From Fibrobacterota bacterium (GTDB lineage: Bacteria > Fibrobacterota > Fibrobacteria > UBA11236): DNA of 64,000 nucleotides. How positions within the stretch are numbered: the first letter of the stretch is position 1; each line of letters starts with the position of its first letter. Shown one piece after another: positions 34,619-43,928 of the stretch. A program made the position numbers and the translations under genes. Under the pieces are notes generated by a model, which had not been told where the DNA came from, searched no databases, and worked only from the letters and a program-made list of their open reading frames with translations. The DNA lies in assembly GCA_947482115.1 (NCBI GenBank), contig CANKII010000001.1, positions 577,840-641,839 of the forward strand, given 5' to 3'.

Positions 34619-34654
34619 CCCGTAGGGGGCGCATTTTTGTTACGCCCCTTACGG
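34619..34654. terminator. Bidirectional terminator-like hairpin (cccgtagggggcg - catttttgtta - cgccccttacgg)
   Basis: Read directly; between the convergent ilvE and adhesin-gene stops. 12-bp arms with one mismatch and a T-rich loop. Confidence 0.45.
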
Positions 34655-37600
34655 ACCGGCGTTAACCACACCAATCTTGATGACAGCCGTTGTATTGCCA
34701 CCGGGGTTTTGCGCGGTGACCGTATAGTTTGTTGCCGGGGAAATCACCGAGGGCGTCCCCTGTATGTAACCCGTGGTTCCATCAAAAGTGATTCCGGTTG
34801 GAAGTGCCGGTAAAATGGAGTAATTCGTCACGATGCCTTGAACGGTGGGAACATTGGGAGGACTGATGGCGATATTGCGGCCATACGTGGGAATATCATC
34901 GATGTATGAAAGCTCGGTGGGAACTCCAACGATGGTAATGTTGATGATGGCTTGTACAGAACCCAACGGGTTGCTCGCTGTCACCGTGTAATCCGTGGCA
35001 AAGGATTGGTGTGTCGTCGGAGTTCCCGTCAGAACACCTGTCAAACTGTCTATAACCAGGCCAGTGGGAGGCGCAGGACTGACGGAATAATGGGTGATGA
35101 AGCCGGTAATCGAGGGAGGATTCGGAGTAATGGCCAGACCAAGGACGTAGGCCGCCGCGTCATCCGCATAGGAGAAATTGGAAGGTATGGCAAATACCCC
35201 GATGTTCACCACCGCTGTATCCGAACCTCCGGAACCGGTTGCAATAACCGAGAAATCGGCAGACAAAGATTGCAGCGTCGGAGTCCCGGAGATGACGCCG
35301 GTAAGAGTGTCCAACGACAAACCGGGTGGGAGCGGGGAAATAAGTGCATAGTGGGTTACATCCCCCCCAGTTGAAATCACGGAATCCGGAGTAATGGCCG
35401 AATCCTTTATATAAGCTGCGGGATTGTGAACGTATGCGATCATGGGGGCTATGAGAACCTGTAAAACACCGGAATCGCTTGTTGCCACACCGGCAATGTT
35501 GGTCACCACGCACTTGTAATAGCCCGAATCCGAACCCTGAACATTGACGAGCGTCAGCGTATCGAGATTGCCAACGCTGTCCACTCCGTTCTTGAGCCAC
35601 TTGTAGAAGAGCGGAGCCGTACCCGATGCAGTCACTCCAAATTTCGCCGTGGCTCCCTGAACAAGAGTCTGACTTACAATGGGCTGGGTGACAATGGACG
35701 CAGGCACATTCAACGACAAGGTCACGCTGTTGCTGGTAGTATCGCCAAGGGGGTTTGTCACAATGACTTTATAGGAGCCGGTATCCGCAGCCTGCACGTT
35801 CACCAAAGTCAGAGTGTCCAATGTGCCGACAGTATCGGTGTTGTTCTTCAACCAGACATAGGTAAGAGTGTCCATGCCCACGGCCATCACACCAAACTTC
35901 ACTGTGGATCCGGCATTCACCATCTGGCTGGCGGGTTGCGAGAGAATCACAGGCGCCAGATTCACAGTCAAAACCCCCGAGTCACTCGTTGCCACACCGG
36001 CAATGTTGGTCACCACGCACTTGTAATAACCCGAGTCCGAACCCTGAACATTGACCAAGGTTAGTGTATCCAGATTTCCAACACTATCCACCCCGTTCTT
36101 GAGCCATTTGTAGGAGAACGGGGCCGTACCCGAAGCCATTACGCCAAATTTCACGGTCGCAGTTTCATTTGCCACCTGGCTGGCGGGCTGCGAGGTCACA
36201 CTGGGAGCCACGTTCAACGCGAGGGTCACGCTTACACTTGACGTATCCCCGGCCACGTTATGAATCAGCACTTTGTACGAACCCGTATCCGCAGCCTGAA
36301 CATTGACCAGCGTCAATGTATCCGAAGAACCCACGGTGTCCGTATTATTCTTCAGCCAGACATAAGTCAACGGAGCCGTGCCCGTCGCCACCACCCCAAA
36401 TGTCGCCGTGGAGCCCGAGTTCACCATCTGGCTGGCGGGTTGCGAAGTAATCACCGGGACAAATTGCACATGCAAGGTGCCCGAATTGCTTGGTGCCACA
36501 CCGGCAACATTGGTGACAAAGCACTGATACGAACCCGAATCCGAGCCTTGAACATTGATCAGAGTCAATGTATCCGAAGAACCCACACTATCGGCGCCGT
36601 TGTGAATCCACTTATACGACAACGGATTGGTGCCTGTAGCCCCGATGCCAAATTTCACCGTGGAACCGGAATTCACCGTTTGAGATACGACCGGCTGGGA
36701 GGTTAGGCTGGGCAATATGTTCAACCCAAGGTTCGCACTAACACTGGAGGTGTCGCCGGCAATATTATGAACGAATACCTGGTAAGAGCCCGTGTCCGAA
36801 GCCTGAAAATTCAATATCGTGAGCGTATCCGTGAAAGCCACCGTGTCCGTATTGTTCTTCAGCCAGACATAAGTCAACGGAGCGGTGCCCGTCGCCACCA
36901 CACCAAATTTCACCGTGGAGCCTGCATTGGCCATCTGACTGGATGTCTGCGAGAGGATCACAGGAAGATAATGCACCACCAACGATCCGGGATTGCTGGG
37001 CGCAACACCTGCGATATTATTGACAAAGCACTGGTACGAACCCGAATCCGAACCCTGAACATTGACAAGGGTCAATGTGTCCAAATTACCCACGCTGTCC
37101 ACCCCGTTCTTCACCCACTTGTAATGAAGCGGAGCCGTACCGGTTGCGATGACACCCAGTTTCACCGTCACACCCGAATTCACGGTTTGGCTGGTGACAG
37201 GCTGCGAAGAAATGTTGGGCGCCACGTTCAGTCCCAGAGTCACGCTGACACTGGAAGTGTCTCCGGCGATGTTATGAACGAACACCCTGTAGGAACCCGT
37301 GTCCGCAGCCTGAAAATTCAATATCGTGAGTGTATCGGTGAAAGCTACCGTGTCCGTATTGTTCTTCAGCCAGACATAAGTCAACGGAGTCGTGCCCGTC
37401 ACCACCACGCCGAATTTGACTGTCGATCCCGCATTGGCCATCTGGCTTGAAGACTGGGACGTAATCACAGGGAGCGCATGCACGATCAAAATGCTGGAAT
37501 CACTCGTGGCAATGCCGGCAACATTCGTGACAATGCATTTGTAAGTGCCTGAATCTGAAAGTTGAACATTCGACAGGGTCAGGGTGTCCTGATTGCCCAC

Positions 37601-39058
37601 GCTGTCCACGCCATTCTTGAGCCATTTACGATGGAGCGGAGCCGTGCCCACCGACACAATGCCAATCTTAACGGTTGTTCCCGTCAGTACGGTCTGTGTG
37701 ACAACCGGTTGCGAAAGAATACCGGAGGGGACATTCAAGCCCAAAGTCACACTGTCGCTTATCAGATCACCAAGGGAATTGTGTATGAACACCTGGTAAG
37801 TACCGACATCCGAGACCTGCGCATTGGGCAGGGTCAGTGTATCCGATGTACCCACGGTGTCTGTATTGTCCTTGAGCCAGGTGTAGGTCACCGGAGCCGT
37901 TCCTGTGGCCACAACCACAAATTGCGCCGTGTCTCCTGTGTTTACCATCAAACTCACCGGCTGCGAGGTGATTTCGGGTGGAGTATGCACGATCAACACC
38001 CCGGAGTCACTAGCCGCTACACCGGCAACGTTCGTGACCACGCACCGGTAATATCCAGAATCGGCACCCACCACACTGGCAATCACCAGCGTATCCTGAT
38101 TTCCAACGCTGTCCGCGTCATCTTTAGTCCAGACGTAATGGAGTGGACCCGTGCCTGTCGCTACTACACCGAATGTCACCGAAGAATCCGCATTCACGGT
38201 TTGAGTGACAACAGGCTGGGAAGTGATCAAAGGCGCCACATTCAAACCCAGAGTCACACTGGTACTCACTGTGTCCCCGGCCACGTTGTGTACCAGTACC
38301 TTGTAAGAACCCGTATCTACCGCCTGGACATTGGATAAAGTCAGGGTATCGAGCAATCCCACGGTATCCGTATTATTTTTCACCCACTGATACGTTAATG
38401 GCGCAGTACCGGTGGCCTGCACGCCAAATTTCACCGTCGAACCTGTATTGGCCATTTGACTCACAGGTTGGGAGCTAATCACCGGTGGTTTGTTCAGGGA
38501 TAATGCAGCGTTGCTGCTCGTCGTATCTCCGATGAGATTGCTCACAACAACCGAATAAAAACCCGTGTCGGATACCTGGACGTTGAACAAAGTAAGCGTG
38601 TCCGTATTCCCTACACTGTCTATATCATTAAAGAGCCATTTATACGTCAATGGAGCCGTACCCGCAGCGACCACGCCAAATTTCACCGTCGAACCCGCAT
38701 TCACCATTTGGCTCATGGGATCGGAGACAATGGACGGCCTTTCATTCACTGTAATGTTTATCGTGTCCGTGGTGGAGCCGGAATCATTACTGGCCGTGAC
38801 CACGTAATCCGTGGCAACCGATGCCGATTCGGGAGCTCCTGAAATGACTCCGCTGACGGAATCCAGCACCAAGCCCGCAGGCAGGGCTGGCGCTACCGAG
38901 TAAAGAAAGACAGTATCCGTTACCGTGGGAGTGTCAGGTGTAATCGGCAAATTTACGGTGTAAACAACCGGGGTCGTGTAAGTGAGATCGGAGGGGGACT
39001 CAAATGCAAAGCTCGAAACAGCGAGCATCAAGAGGGCTGGCAAACCTATCTTTTTCAT
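34649..39058 (-). CDS. Giant secreted surface protein of ~13 tandem Ig-like (I-set-like, GxYxC) domains, with putative-Ig/cadherin-like domains at both ends
   Basis: 1469 aa. Signal peptide MKKIGLPALLMLAVSSFA. An ~90-aa repeating unit alternates between two subtypes (...TYVWLKNNTDTV...DTGSYKV... and ...HYKWVKNGVDSVGN...DSGSYQC...). Several units are near-identical at both protein and DNA level. Confidence 0.7.
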   Translation of the reverse strand: MKKIGLPALLMLAVSSFAFESPSDLTYTTPVVYTVNLPITPDTPTVTDTVFLYSVAPALPAGLVLDSVSGVISGAPESASVATDYVVTASNDSGSTTDTINITVNERPSIVSDPMSQMVNAGSTVKFGVVAAGTAPLTYKWLFNDIDSVGNTDTLTLFNVQVSDTGFYSVVVSNLIGDTTSSNAALSLNKPPVISSQPVSQMANTGSTVKFGVQATGTAPLTYQWVKNNTDTVGLLDTLTLSNVQAVDTGSYKVLVHNVAGDTVSTSVTLGLNVAPLITSQPVVTQTVNADSSVTFGVVATGTGPLHYVWTKDDADSVGNQDTLVIASVVGADSGYYRCVVTNVAGVAASDSGVLIVHTPPEITSQPVSLMVNTGDTAQFVVVATGTAPVTYTWLKDNTDTVGTSDTLTLPNAQVSDVGTYQVFIHNSLGDLISDSVTLGLNVPSGILSQPVVTQTVLTGTTVKIGIVSVGTAPLHRKWLKNGVDSVGNQDTLTLSNVQLSDSGTYKCIVTNVAGIATSDSSILIVHALPVITSQSSSQMANAGSTVKFGVVVTGTTPLTYVWLKNNTDTVAFTDTLTILNFQAADTGSYRVFVHNIAGDTSSVSVTLGLNVAPNISSQPVTSQTVNSGVTVKLGVIATGTAPLHYKWVKNGVDSVGNLDTLTLVNVQGSDSGSYQCFVNNIAGVAPSNPGSLVVHYLPVILSQTSSQMANAGSTVKFGVVATGTAPLTYVWLKNNTDTVAFTDTLTILNFQASDTGSYQVFVHNIAGDTSSVSANLGLNILPSLTSQPVVSQTVNSGSTVKFGIGATGTNPLSYKWIHNGADSVGSSDTLTLINVQGSDSGSYQCFVTNVAGVAPSNSGTLHVQFVPVITSQPASQMVNSGSTATFGVVATGTAPLTYVWLKNNTDTVGSSDTLTLVNVQAADTGSYKVLIHNVAGDTSSVSVTLALNVAPSVTSQPASQVANETATVKFGVMASGTAPFSYKWLKNGVDSVGNLDTLTLVNVQGSDSGYYKCVVTNIAGVATSDSGVLTVNLAPVILSQPASQMVNAGSTVKFGVMAVGMDTLTYVWLKNNTDTVGTLDTLTLVNVQAADTGSYKVIVTNPLGDTTSNSVTLSLNVPASIVTQPIVSQTLVQGATAKFGVTASGTAPLFYKWLKNGVDSVGNLDTLTLVNVQGSDSGYYKCVVTNIAGVATSDSGVLQVLIAPMIAYVHNPAAYIKDSAITPDSVISTGGDVTHYALISPLPPGLSLDTLTGVISGTPTLQSLSADFSVIATGSGGSDTAVVNIGVFAIPSNFSYADDAAAYVLGLAITPNPPSITGFITHYSVSPAPPTGLVIDSLTGVLTGTPTTHQSFATDYTVTASNPLGSVQAIINITIVGVPTELSYIDDIPTYGRNIAISPPNVPTVQGIVTNYSILPALPTGITFDGTTGYIQGTPSVISPATNYTVTAQNPGGNTTAVIKIGVVNAGP

Positions 39059-39320
39059 GAGGAATCCTTCCTTTTTCTTTAACCGTCGGAGTCTGGGCTT
39101 GATAGAAATGTTCGCAGACTAAGTTTTTATTTAATCAGGTTAAGACGTAAAAAAGTTTGGGGGACGTGACAGTAACATTGTGTTACAATAGTCCCCACAT
39201 ATAAAGCCATGTGATTTGTCTCACTTACATTGGACAAGGGATCCAGCTCTTTAGCTTGTATGAAACAAACAGAAACACGTTTTTTCGCGGGAAACAACCG
39301 CTTTTTTCCCCAATCAAAAA

Positions 39321-39419
39321 ATGATTACCTTGGATCCCATGAATTCAGACTGCCACCGCACCCGATTGAACGGGCTTATTGCGATTCGAATTATTACCCC
39401 GCTCGGGAGCGGCCTTTAA
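39321..39419 (+). CDS. Candidate Ile-rich leader peptide (MITLDPMNSDCHRTRLNGLIAIRIITPLGSGL) of a cimA attenuator
   Basis: Own translation: 32 aa with 5 Ile codons, 4 of them within 7 codons (LIAIRIIT). The stop lies inside the first hairpin, upstream of the antiterminator/terminator structures. Confidence 0.4.
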   Translation: MITLDPMNSDCHRTRLNGLIAIRIITPLGSGL

Positions 39420-39441
39420 GGGAATTTGCATCTCCCTAAAA

Positions 39442-39474
39442 AAGCCCGCTCCGACCAGAGCGGGCTTTTTTATT
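39442..39474 (+). terminator. Intrinsic terminator (aagcccgctc-cgacca-gagcgggctt + TTTTTTATT) 52 nt upstream of the cimA ATG; attenuator terminator
   Basis: Read directly: 10-bp GC-rich stem followed by a T-tract. The upstream segment gagcgg (39407..39412) can alternatively pair with ccgctc (39446..39451), which would form an antiterminator. Confidence 0.55.
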
Positions 39475-39525
39475 GGGGGGTAAAACAGAAACACGGAAAA
39501 TGGAAAACAAAAAAGGCGGGAAGCC

Positions 39526-41106
39526 ATGAAAAAGCAAGTCTTCATATACGACACCACTTTGCGGGACGGCAATCAAGCCAAGGGCCTTTCCCTTTCGCTG
39601 GAAGACAAGCTCACCATCGCGCGCAAGCTGGACGATTTCGGAGTCGACTATATCGAGGGTGGATGGCCCAATGCCACCAATCCCACCGACGTCGAATTCT
39701 TTGCCCGCGCCCGGAAGATGACCTGGAAGTACGCAAAGATTGCGGCATTCGGCAGCACCTGCCGTCCCAACGGAAAACCGGAGGAAGATGCGAGCTTGCG
39801 GCATTTGGTGGACACACAGGCTCCGGTGATCACTATTTTCGGCAAAAGCTGGGACTTGCATGTCACCGACGTGTTGCGTACGACGCTCGAGGAAAATCTC
39901 CGGATGATCCGCGACTCCGTGGCGTTCCTCAAAAAACACGCTTCCGAAGTGGTATACGATGCCGAACATTTCTTTGACGGCTACAAGGCCAATCCAGAAT
40001 ATGCCATGTCGACCTTACGTGCGGCAAAAGAAGGCGGTGCGGATTGTCTTGTGTTATGCGATACCAACGGTGGCATGGCCTTGTCGTGGGAACTCGAAGA
40101 AATCACCGCCTTGGTAAAACGAACTTTGGATGCACCGTTGGGAATCCATGTTCACAACGATACGGGCGTAGCCATCGCCAACAGCCTCGCTGCGGTACGC
40201 GCAGGTGCGACGCAAGTCCAGGGCGTATTCAACGGTTACGGCGAGCGCTGCGGTAACGCCAATCTCACCGTCATCGTTCCCGATTTGCAGCTTAAGATGG
40301 GCTACAAGGTGGTTACGGATGAACAACTGGGGAAACTGCGCAGCCTTAGCCTGAGCATCAGCGAAGTCGCCAATCTCACAGACGATATCCGTCAGCCGTA
40401 CGTGGGTGAAGCGGCCTTTGCCCACAAAGGCGGAGCGCATGTGGATGGAGTCATGAAAGTGGCCCGCAGTTTCGAGCACATCGATCCGGCATTGGTGGGA
40501 AATGCCCGCGACTTCATCGTGTCCAATCAAAGCGGCAGCAGTTTGATCTGGGACAAGATCCGCGCCATCGTTCCCGAAGTGGACAAGCGCAGCCCTGAAG
40601 TGGCCGCGATATTGGCCGAGGTAAAGCACAAAGAGGATTCCGGATATCACTTTGAAATCGCCGATGCGAGTTTTCAATTGCTGGCCCGCCGCCATCTGGG
40701 TTTGTTTCAAGATCGCTTTGAATTTCTTGGCTTCAAATCCACCGAGGAACGCAAAGAAGATGGAGGACTGCATTCGGAATTCAGCCTCAAGTTGAAAGTC
40801 GGAAATGAAGTCGAGGAAACCTCCGCTGTGGGAAATGGTCCGGTAGACGCGATGAACGCCGCCATGTTGAAAGGTTTGATCCGTTTCTTCCCGAACTTGA
40901 AATCCCTCGAATTAATCGACTTCAAGGTCCGGGTGTTGGACAACGCCAAAGGCACCGGGGCGACAGTTCGCGTCTGGACGCGCTATCTCGATCATGCGCA
41001 TCCGGAAATGGAACCTTACGGAACCATCGGTGTTTCCACCAACATCATCGAAGCGTCATGGCTGGCGTTGATGGACGGGATTCATTACAAGTTGATGCGG
41101 GGATAA
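39526..41106 (+). CDS. cimA: (R)-citramalate synthase (LeuA/CimA family, short 'LeuA_allo' type)
   Basis: 526 aa. IYDTTLRDGNQAKGLSLSLEDKLTIARKLDDFGVDYIEGGWP and a C-terminal LeuA-dimer-like regulatory domain. The length and the N-terminus fit CimA rather than LeuA. Confidence 0.75.
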   Translation: MKKQVFIYDTTLRDGNQAKGLSLSLEDKLTIARKLDDFGVDYIEGGWPNATNPTDVEFFARARKMTWKYAKIAAFGSTCRPNGKPEEDASLRHLVDTQAPVITIFGKSWDLHVTDVLRTTLEENLRMIRDSVAFLKKHASEVVYDAEHFFDGYKANPEYAMSTLRAAKEGGADCLVLCDTNGGMALSWELEEITALVKRTLDAPLGIHVHNDTGVAIANSLAAVRAGATQVQGVFNGYGERCGNANLTVIVPDLQLKMGYKVVTDEQLGKLRSLSLSISEVANLTDDIRQPYVGEAAFAHKGGAHVDGVMKVARSFEHIDPALVGNARDFIVSNQSGSSLIWDKIRAIVPEVDKRSPEVAAILAEVKHKEDSGYHFEIADASFQLLARRHLGLFQDRFEFLGFKSTEERKEDGGLHSEFSLKLKVGNEVEETSAVGNGPVDAMNAAMLKGLIRFFPNLKSLELIDFKVRVLDNAKGTGATVRVWTRYLDHAHPEMEPYGTIGVSTNIIEASWLALMDGIHYKLMRG

Positions 41107-43088: not shown

Positions 43089-43928
43089 GTGGACACCATG
43101 AACACCGCGCCGGACATAGCCGGGTACACTGATTACCGGAAATATTTGCAGGACGCTTATGTCGCCCGTAAATCCTGGGACGGAAAATTTTCCCAACGAT
43201 TCATCAATCAAAAAATGGGAACCCGATCCTCCGGATGGTTTGCGGACGTCCTTGCCCGAAGGCAAAAACTCAAACCTCATCATGCAACCCAGATCGGCAC
43301 AATATTCAAGCTTGAATCCAGGGAGCGGGATTTTCTGAGGGTGCTCATTGAATTGGAGCAGGCCTCAACACCCGAAGAAAGAACCGCGGCGTATGACAAA
43401 TGGTTCAGTCTCAAGGGCATGCGCGAGGAAATAGTCTCGAAGGATCGTTTCAAATATTTTGAGCATTGGTACTATCCGGCCCTTCGCGAATTATTGACGC
43501 TAAAACCGTTTCAGGTAAATTACGCCGCCCTCTCCACATTGCTTTATCCCCCCATAAAACCCGCCCAGGCGAAGGAAGCCGTGGAGACCTTGATTCGGCT
43601 GGGACTTGTTTTTCCGGGAGCCCCTTCCCCCCTCCCCGTTCTCGTTAAGGACTCTTCAAGCAAAACAAATCACTGGCACAAGATCCTGAAATCGTACATG
43701 CAGCTTGCATTGCCCGCCCTGAAAAAATTTTCCAAGGAGGAGCGCAATTTCTCCTCTCTGACACTCACCTTTTCGCCGGAAGGATTGAAAAAGGCCGGTG
43801 ATGAAATTGCGGCCCTTCGCAGCAGACTTCTGATGCTGTCCGAGAAAGATCGGGATCGGGATCGGGTTTATCAATGCCTCTTTCAGGTCTTTCCACTGTC
43901 ATTACCGGTGGAGACCCAAGGTGATTGA
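43089..43928 (+). CDS. Hypothetical protein, TIGR02147-like (Fibrobacter-type paralogous family; possible HTH regulator)
   Basis: 279 aa. The N-terminal YTDYRKYLQDAY...FSQRF pattern matches my recollection of TIGR02147 members. The assignment is tentative. Confidence 0.35.
   Translation: MDTMNTAPDIAGYTDYRKYLQDAYVARKSWDGKFSQRFINQKMGTRSSGWFADVLARRQKLKPHHATQIGTIFKLESRERDFLRVLIELEQASTPEERTAAYDKWFSLKGMREEIVSKDRFKYFEHWYYPALRELLTLKPFQVNYAALSTLLYPPIKPAQAKEAVETLIRLGLVFPGAPSPLPVLVKDSSSKTNHWHKILKSYMQLALPALKKFSKEERNFSSLTLTFSPEGLKKAGDEIAALRSRLLMLSEKDRDRDRVYQCLFQVFPLSLPVETQGD

Follow-up and report, generated by a model that had tools for sequence, protein, structure and literature searches.

A probable isoleucine-responsive leader-peptide attenuator of citramalate synthase in uncultured Fibrobacteria

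The citramalate synthase gene cimA of a Fibrobacterota bacterium is preceded by a short open reading frame (ORF) with clustered isoleucine (Ile) codons and by a strong intrinsic terminator. The gene lies in a 64,000-nucleotide (nt) stretch, referred to below as the window (GenBank assembly GCA_947482115.1, contig CANKII010000001.1, positions 577,840 to 641,839 of the forward strand). RNA folding and comparison with 11 related loci make it probable that this region is an Ile-specific, ribosome-mediated transcription attenuator, which would couple cimA to the supply of charged tRNA-Ile. The mechanism itself is known, and what is new is the target gene, the phylum, and a leader that is probably read from a leaderless mRNA. 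Sequence analysis and computation show which parts are present and how they are arranged, that antiterminator and terminator exclude each other, and that the unit is conserved and linked to cimA, whereas translation of the leader, its transcription start, actual termination, and the response to isoleucine are inferred. The region contains a same-strand ORF with clustered Ile codons, a terminator between this ORF and a cognate biosynthetic gene, an antiterminator that excludes the terminator, and a geometry in which the position of the ribosome would select between the two.

Citramalate synthase catalyzes the committed step of the threonine-independent Ile pathway, which is the main or sole Ile route of many anaerobes and has been exploited for metabolic engineering. 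As far as we have found, the regulation of CimA known so far is allosteric feedback. If the proposed attenuator is real, the committed step of the citramalate route would also be controlled transcriptionally, via the charging of tRNA-Ile. The assignment of the downstream gene in an initial annotation, which had been made from the sequence alone, was confirmed by a TIGR00977 score of 686 bits (cut-off 450) for the product of 526 amino acids (aa). HMGL-like, HCS_D2, and LeuA_dimer are the Pfam domains found in its homologues, and its closest relatives occur in metagenome-assembled genomes of Fibrobacteres/Fibrobacteria, which together with a TIGR02147 gene described below helps to assign the DNA to Fibrobacterota. 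In the window, cimA is monocistronic and the following gene is convergent. The preceding gene (34649-39058) is located on the opposite (minus) strand, which places the terminator in the 5′-untranslated region of cimA, where it terminates no upstream gene.

Leader and alternative RNA structures upstream of cimA

The following features of the window, all on the plus strand, make up the candidate attenuator and its gene.

39326..39331, plus strand: putative -10 element TACCTT inside the conserved motif TGATTAnnTT, with a spacing conserved in relatives
39339..39419, plus strand: probable leader peptide ORF of 26 codons plus stop, with four Ile codons, MNSDCHRTRLNGLIAIRIITPLGSGL; homologous leader ORFs are found in 12 of 12 loci
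39356..39374, plus strand: segment 1, 5′ strand of the 1:2 hairpin (CCGC.CCCGA...CGGG), pairing with 39398-39412 at -18.3 kcal/mol
39378..39395, plus strand: candidate regulatory codon cluster ATT GCG ATT CGA ATT ATT, four Ile codons in six; clustered Ile codons are kept in 12 of 12 loci
39398..39423, plus strand: segment 2, overlapping the last leader codons and the stop; its 3′ part 39406-39417 (GGAGCGG.CCUU) is the 5′ strand of the antiterminator
39419..39437, plus strand: small inner hairpin AGGGA...UCCCU, stacked within the antiterminator, from folding and partly conserved
39438..39471, plus strand: intrinsic terminator (segments 3 and 4), AAAAAAGCCCGCTC, loop CGACCA, GAGCGGGCTTTTTT, a perfect 14-bp stem followed by T6
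39526..41106, plus strand: cimA, citramalate synthase, the gene proposed to be regulated

The 32-codon ORF with five Ile codons that had been described initially is present (39321 to 39419, MITLDPMNSDCHRTRLNGLIAIRIITPLGSGL). Four of these codons, all ATT and located at 39378, 39384, 39390, and 39393, fall within six codons; the chance of finding at least four Ile codons among seven within a 25-codon ORF is about 0.003-0.004. With regard to the start, ATG 39321 is in frame as proposed, but comparison with the relatives points to the in-frame ATG 39339 as the conserved start, which probably shortens the leader to 26 codons. The upstream ATG was judged unlikely to serve as a start, since it is part of the -10-like motif and since the triplet that corresponds to it in four relatives (L161, L162, L164, and L165) is not in frame with the leader.

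A hexamer of the form TAnnnT ends 6-7 nt 5′ of the leader ATG in nine of the 12 members of the family described below, and in five of these nine a perfect TTGACA lies ~16-19 nt (counted by eye) 5′ of the hexamer. This arrangement suggests that the A of ATG 39339 or a neighboring base is the first to be transcribed and that the leader mRNA is leaderless or nearly so, which would account for the missing Shine-Dalgarno sequence. A consensus promoter and terminator scan detected no sigma-70 promoter in this region. The same scan also overlooked the terminator, probably as a result of the T-run being drawn into the stem by its A/U extension.

The terminator is as strong as had been supposed: its arms (39438-39451 and 39458-39471) form a perfect stem with an energy of -22 to -24 kcal/mol, and it ends 54 nt before cimA. 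An A-run and a T-run flank the hairpin, which scores on both strands. The 5′ arm is common to the terminator and the antiterminator. The pairing of GAGCGG (39407-39412) with CCGCTC (39446-39451), noted in the initial annotation, is part of a larger antiterminator formed by 39406-39423 with 39433-39452 (-21.8 to -23.4 kcal/mol), which is comprised of the helices 39406-39412/39446-39452 and 39414-39417/39441-39444. In the minimum-energy fold, the Ile codons are located in the loop of the 1:2 hairpin (39356-39374/39398-39412). The leader stop codon, TAA at 39417-39419, had been placed within the first hairpin; it is actually situated 5 nt past the small hairpin at 39399-39412.

The influence of translation on these structures was modeled by masked folding, in which an assumed ribosome footprint of -15 to +14 nt around the ribosomal P site is withheld from pairing. 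The informative folds are those of a nascent transcript truncated before the 3′ arm of the terminator (to 39452 or 39457). Whichever of the four Ile codons the ribosome was placed on, the truncated transcript adopted the antiterminator as its fold of lowest energy; a ribosome on the stop codon hides segment 2 and leaves no antiterminator (0 kcal/mol). Such mutually exclusive folds are what the initial annotation had anticipated. When the complete leader was folded under the same masks, the terminator was kept every time; this is uninformative because attenuation is a kinetic process. The observed antiterminator energy was reached by one of 300 dinucleotide shuffles of the window spacer.

These structures suggest the following mechanism. 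Transcription would begin at or just before ATG 39339, and the 26-codon leader would be translated while RNA polymerase moves on. If Ile-tRNA is plentiful, the ribosome would reach the stop codon at 39417-39419 and cover segment 2 (39406-39417), so that the terminator at 39438-39471 could fold and RNA polymerase would stop at the T-run without reaching cimA. Under a shortage of Ile-tRNA, the ribosome would stall at one of the four ATT codons (39378-39395), with its footprint ending before 39406. Segment 2 would then be free to pair with the 5′ arm of the terminator (39441-39452), the terminator would not form, and cimA would be transcribed.

Conservation in related Fibrobacteria and competing explanations

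Close relatives were gathered by protein search, followed by retrieval of the contigs that encode them; a scan of metagenome contigs gave none with more than 59% identity. The resulting family consists of the window and 11 cimA loci (L002, L081, and L161-L169), whose cimA proteins are 59-91% identical. In all 12 loci, a short ORF is located directly 5′ of cimA and is followed by a GC-rich hairpin with a T-run. The leader ORF and its Ile cluster are present throughout the family, which is the conservation that the initial annotation had proposed to look for. The leader peptides are listed below.

window: MNSDCHRTRLNGLIAIRIITPLGSGL
L161: MNPKAALIRIMITPHGSGL
L162: MKSTLAIRIIITPPGSGL
L163: MTLRSHNACNGIGLSLGGLIRIIAPCGSGL
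L164: MQSSKSALLIRIISPQHSGL
L165: MTLRNRNLIIRIISPRHSGL
L166: MTRNCGIFAISIIRLPSGERIV
L167: MNRRYAILIIRISIGASSGLL
L168: MGHSLAIRIIRIIIAECEASVLL
L169: MPVSRPDLNSLSSRNGGQAAHKAPISAIIIPIREGRAVGAG
L002: MNRPSARLIIRIQSESEPSGLT
L081: MNFRSISELRIIHAPSGE

The leaders vary in length (18-41 codons) and in N-terminal sequence, and they are constant in having a start codon, three to six clustered in-frame Ile codons, and a stop adjoining or within the antiterminator strand. Ile accounts for 18.3% of the residues in the 12 leaders versus 5.2% in the proteins of the window (3.5-fold), valine (Val) is depleted (0.2-fold), leucine (Leu) is at background (1.1-fold), and arginine (Arg) is enriched 2.1-fold. Clusters of Val or Leu codons beside the Ile codons, by which a multivalent ilv-type leader would be recognized, were not found in the 12 leaders. 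The leader is Ile-specific, and this fits an enzyme that serves isoleucine alone.

The genes upstream of the leader differ among family members and include a same-strand ilvE, a PMT_2-like gene, an opposite-strand protein with immunoglobulin (Ig) repeats, and others, from which it follows that the element travels with cimA. The gene ilvE lies directly 5′ of the leader in four relatives (L161 and L163-L165). The possibility that the terminator serves to end an ilvE transcript from upstream was considered and rejected, since the upstream gene is divergent in the window and in L162. At the more distant Fibrobacterota cimA loci, including those of the genus Fibrobacter (L003, L004, L082, L083, and L170-L172), no leader was found, which indicates that the element is clade-restricted. 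In two of these, L170 (1-4917) and L172 (1-5145), with a cimA identity of 61-65%, cimA is embedded in the gene string leuB-ilvE-cimA-hisD. The leader is seen solely where cimA has its own upstream region.

The structural switch is conserved together with the leader. Masked folding with a stalled ribosome yielded in all 12 loci an antiterminator of -16 to -27 kcal/mol that pairs 46-90% of the terminator 5′ arm, and once the ribosome is moved to the stop codon, the residual structure amounts to no more than 0 to -5.7 kcal/mol, again in all 12. Two members, L169 and L081, have differing sequences and identical switch logic. Among 300 spacer shuffles per locus, the observed energy was attained by 0-2 in the six closest members and by 4-22 in the remaining ones. 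In a MAFFT alignment of the ten alignable members, 83% of the antiterminator cells are paired, compared with 35-54% when the partners are slid; the corresponding values are 93.6% for the terminator, which is present in all 12 loci, and 64% for the inner hairpin at 39419-39437. L164 and L165 share a double change, G to C in segment 2 and C to G in the 5′ arm of the terminator, by which the antiterminator pair is kept and the corresponding terminator pair is broken. What is conserved at the core of the element is the leader with its Ile cluster, segment 2 beside the stop, and the terminator.

Several observations weigh against an Ile-sensing attenuator or limit what the comparison can support. 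With regard to the structures, the double change described above is a single compensatory pair, the covariation score was matched by 33 of 500 shuffles, and the terminator is without double changes; these statistics are weak because the core of the family is nearly invariant. GC-rich spacers still paired with the arm of the terminator after shuffling (-12 to -15 kcal/mol), and in the absence of translation the antiterminator would probably form by default, unlike in the trp paradigm. From the 1:2/2:3/3:4 logic of the initial annotation, the exclusivity of antiterminator and terminator stands in all 12 loci, but the 1:2 hairpin is not conserved, with little structure there in L161 and L162, and segment 1 is probably accessory. 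Moreover, the members are phylogenetically related and their counts are not independent. On the side of expression, no Shine-Dalgarno sequence precedes either ATG 39321 or ATG 39339, and translation hinges on the proposed leaderless start; the window also lacks a clear -35 element. Several members carry just three or four Ile codons, which is fewer than in many classical leaders. Finally, Ile sensing alone leaves unexplained why the segment ATTCGAATT (39384-39392) is identical even at synonymous positions in nine of the 12 leaders (window, L161-L165, L167, L168, and L002) while the rest of the leader diverges. The segment includes the palindrome ATTCGAAT as well as a CGA codon, which is rare for Arg (89 of the 924 Arg codons across the genes of the window). 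Its invariance could reflect slow decoding of a codon, an action of the nascent peptide, or a site bound by a protein, and the ATT-CGA-ATT core may in one of these ways add a second layer to the regulation.

The same invariance speaks for an RNA switch that responds to another signal, which could be a protein or ligand bound to ATTCGAATT, or a small molecule that makes the conserved nascent peptide (L-I-R-I-I...P..SGL) stall the ribosome in a TnaC-like manner. The enrichment of Arg, mostly encoded by the rare CGA, and a conserved C-terminal SGL* motif would fit this view. However, L166 (ISII; ATT AGC ATT ATT CGT) and L169 (IIIPI; ATT ATT ATT CCC ATT) are without the palindrome and have nonetheless kept in-frame clustered Ile codons. 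The SGL* motif is accounted for by the antiterminator nucleotides GAGCGGACTTT that encode this region, and the unrelated leaders of other phyla, discussed below, have Ile enrichment alone in common. Taken together, we regard a different signal as unlikely.

The unit could also be an independent small gene, i.e., a small protein or a small RNA with its own terminator, which does not regulate cimA or acts mainly in trans, as rnTrpL/peTrpL of Sinorhizobium does. It has a putative promoter and a strong terminator of its own, and trans-acting attenuator RNAs and leader peptides have been documented. Against this, it is always located immediately 5′ of cimA on the same strand in the 12 loci, whatever gene lies upstream, and the consensus scan revealed no separate cimA promoter in the 54 nt between terminator and cimA. 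A conserved antiterminator makes sense only if readthrough matters, and a role in trans would supplement attenuation in cis rather than preclude it. An independent gene is therefore considered very improbable. Even less credence is given to chance, i.e., an AT-rich patch that happens to read as Ile codons beside an ordinary bidirectional terminator, which would insulate cimA from divergent or antisense transcription. The hairpin, with its A-run and T-run, does score on both strands, and the probability of ~0.3-0.4% per ORF for the Ile cluster applies to a single sequence. Yet frame, start, Ile cluster, stop position, and antiterminator are kept in 12 loci with divergent leaders, the closest gene 5′ of the hairpin is transcribed from the opposite strand and away from it, and an alignment artefact in the ORFs of the relatives was excluded by direct reading of the sequences.

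Known attenuators and cimA leaders beyond the clade

The Ile-specific attenuator proposed here recalls the leaders of ilvGMEDA (ilvL) and ilvBN (ivbL) of Escherichia coli and Salmonella. It shares with them a short leader ORF, clustered regulatory codons, a stop codon beside segment 2, a mutually exclusive antiterminator and terminator, and a branched-chain amino acid biosynthetic gene as the target. The enteric ilvL and ivbL leaders are multivalent, containing Ile, Val, and Leu codons, whereas the cimA leader is Ile-only, is depleted in Val, and has no conserved 1:2 element. In addition, its target belongs to the citramalate route, which is absent from E. coli, the phylum is Fibrobacterota, and there is no similarity in sequence or by covariance model.

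A search with all 4227 Rfam families across 38800-39900 (E-values up to 10) gave no family at threshold, and neither a T-box nor a riboswitch was detected in this interval. The threonine (Thr) leader family Thr_leader (RF00506) reached 38.1 bits against a gathering threshold of 55, and Leu_leader (RF00512) reached 29.0 against 50. The former match is mostly due to the terminator, given that the terminator alone scores 29.8 bits on the opposite strand. Indeed, the terminator AAAAAAGCCCGC...GCGGGCTTTTTT almost equals the thr attenuator consensus, and the thrL leader contains Ile codons too. Nevertheless, the cimA leader has no run of Thr or Leu codons and belongs to neither family.

The T-boxes upstream of ilv and leu operons in Bacillota resemble the proposed attenuator in that uncharged tRNA leads to antitermination, and the gene neighborhood is sometimes shared; they differ in reading the tRNA directly, without translation. 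Genes of COG0119 are T-box targets (PMC12452182). The T-box model RF00230 had no match at E-values up to 10 in 38800-39900, although it does find one in locus L069, ~1.8 kb upstream of cimA, where it presumably heads an operon that includes this gene. A leader peptide read from a leaderless mRNA is known from the ilvBNC attenuator of Corynebacterium glutamicum, whose peptide is named IlvL (PMC11857589). The cimA element would likewise be a leader-peptide attenuator of a branched-chain gene, with its leaderless start suggested solely by the spacing between the -10 element and the ATG, and it differs in phylum, gene, sequence, and hairpin arrangement.

Candidate leaders also occur before cimA in other bacteria. 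A terminator was found less than 200 nt 5′ of cimA in 18 of 157 diverse loci, and in nine of these 18, with Desulfobacterota-like leaders among them, an ORF with an Ile cluster ends just before it. Five loci on Desulfobacterota-like contigs (L049, L057, L074, L146, and L154) have unrelated Ile/Val/Leu leaders and terminators ~40-210 nt 5′ of cimA, e.g., MNFIVNNIIVIICATGVLVSLLLSLLVVRPTIPDLIMT. As in the Fibrobacteria, a leader ORF, an antiterminator overlapping its 3′ end, and a terminator are found directly before cimA. In contrast, these leaders are unrelated in sequence and multivalent, with 37-41 codons, 6-7 Ile, 2-6 Val, and 7-14 Leu residues. Their 3′ end, CCUGAUAAUGAC, mimics the 3′ arm of the terminator. 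Masked folding gave a strong antiterminator of -21 to -30 kcal/mol in L049, L074, and L146. In L057 and L154 the values were weak (-3.2 and -2.7 kcal/mol) with the mask placed at a late Ile codon rather than at the main cluster, because a stall point near the stop masks the antiterminator strand. Two further loci, L139 and L131, have candidate Ile/Val/Leu-rich leader ORFs and terminators before cimA.

No Rfam family was found in the Desulfobacterota-like leaders, and a covariance model built from the Fibrobacteria family (R1) did not match them. Neither the 64-kb window nor the 172 loci yielded a further copy with this model. Outside its own training sequences, it gave a marginal full-length match to the family member L169 (13.9 bits, E 0.85); elsewhere there were only weak matches to the terminator alone, all with E of at least 0.19. 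These comparisons suggest that the Desulfobacterota-like leaders arose independently. On balance, we lean towards the view that attenuation of cimA by Ile-codon leaders is a previously unrecognized and recurrent arrangement of independent origin, represented by an uncultured clade of Fibrobacteria (Ile-only, probably with a leaderless transcript) and by Desulfobacterota-like bacteria (Ile/Val/Leu).

Leader-peptide attenuation of cimA was not found described in a limited full-text literature search, in agreement with the initial annotation; older comparative papers in which cimA is called 'leuA' were only partly covered by this search. To our knowledge, almost no gene regulation has been characterized in Fibrobacterota. 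If the recurrent-attenuation view is right, it would provide the first evidence of ribosome-mediated attenuation in this phylum and the first RNA-level regulatory mechanism for the citramalate route to isoleucine. The mechanism is a textbook one, and the gain would be incremental rather than conceptual. The element, with ~135 nt, could potentially be used in synthetic biology as a compact Ile-responsive part.

Annotation and surroundings of cimA

Many database copies of this citramalate synthase are labeled '2-isopropylmalate synthase' by the Joint Genome Institute (JGI). The leader could serve as an annotation marker that tells cimA from its leuA paralogues. Several cimA gene calls in the databases add 5-50 residues to the N-terminus relative to the 526 aa of the window, which suggests mis-called starts that extend into the leader region.

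Three further sequence elements are located in the region upstream of the leader. A CRP/FNR-like palindrome, TGTGA-TTTGTC-TCACT (39210-39225), lies in the divergent intergenic region and is kept in L162 (87% identity) as TGTGATAATGCTCACT; it may be an operator of cimA or of the divergent Ig-repeat gene. An inverted repeat, GTAACA-TTG-TGTTAC (39172-39186), overlaps the extended -10-like sequence TGTGTTACAAT and is kept in L162 as GTAACAGAGTGTTAC; 5′ of the leader, this repeat may act as another promoter or as a binding site for a regulator. Just 5′ of the putative leader promoter, a small hairpin, GCGG-GAAACAA-CCGC followed by T6 (39287-39307), which is not obviously conserved in L162, might insulate the leader against upstream transcription.

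A scan of the 64-kb window for strong terminators preceded by amino-acid-rich ORFs revealed no second comparable unit. The gene upstream of cimA (34649-39058, minus strand) encodes a protein of 1469 aa with many near-identical Ig-like repeats, which produce many long spurious ORFs on the opposite strand; its orthologue in L162 matches He_PIG, I-set, and Ig_3. At 43089-43928, the window encodes a protein of the TIGR02147 family (Fsuc_second), whose paralogues are characteristic of Fibrobacter.

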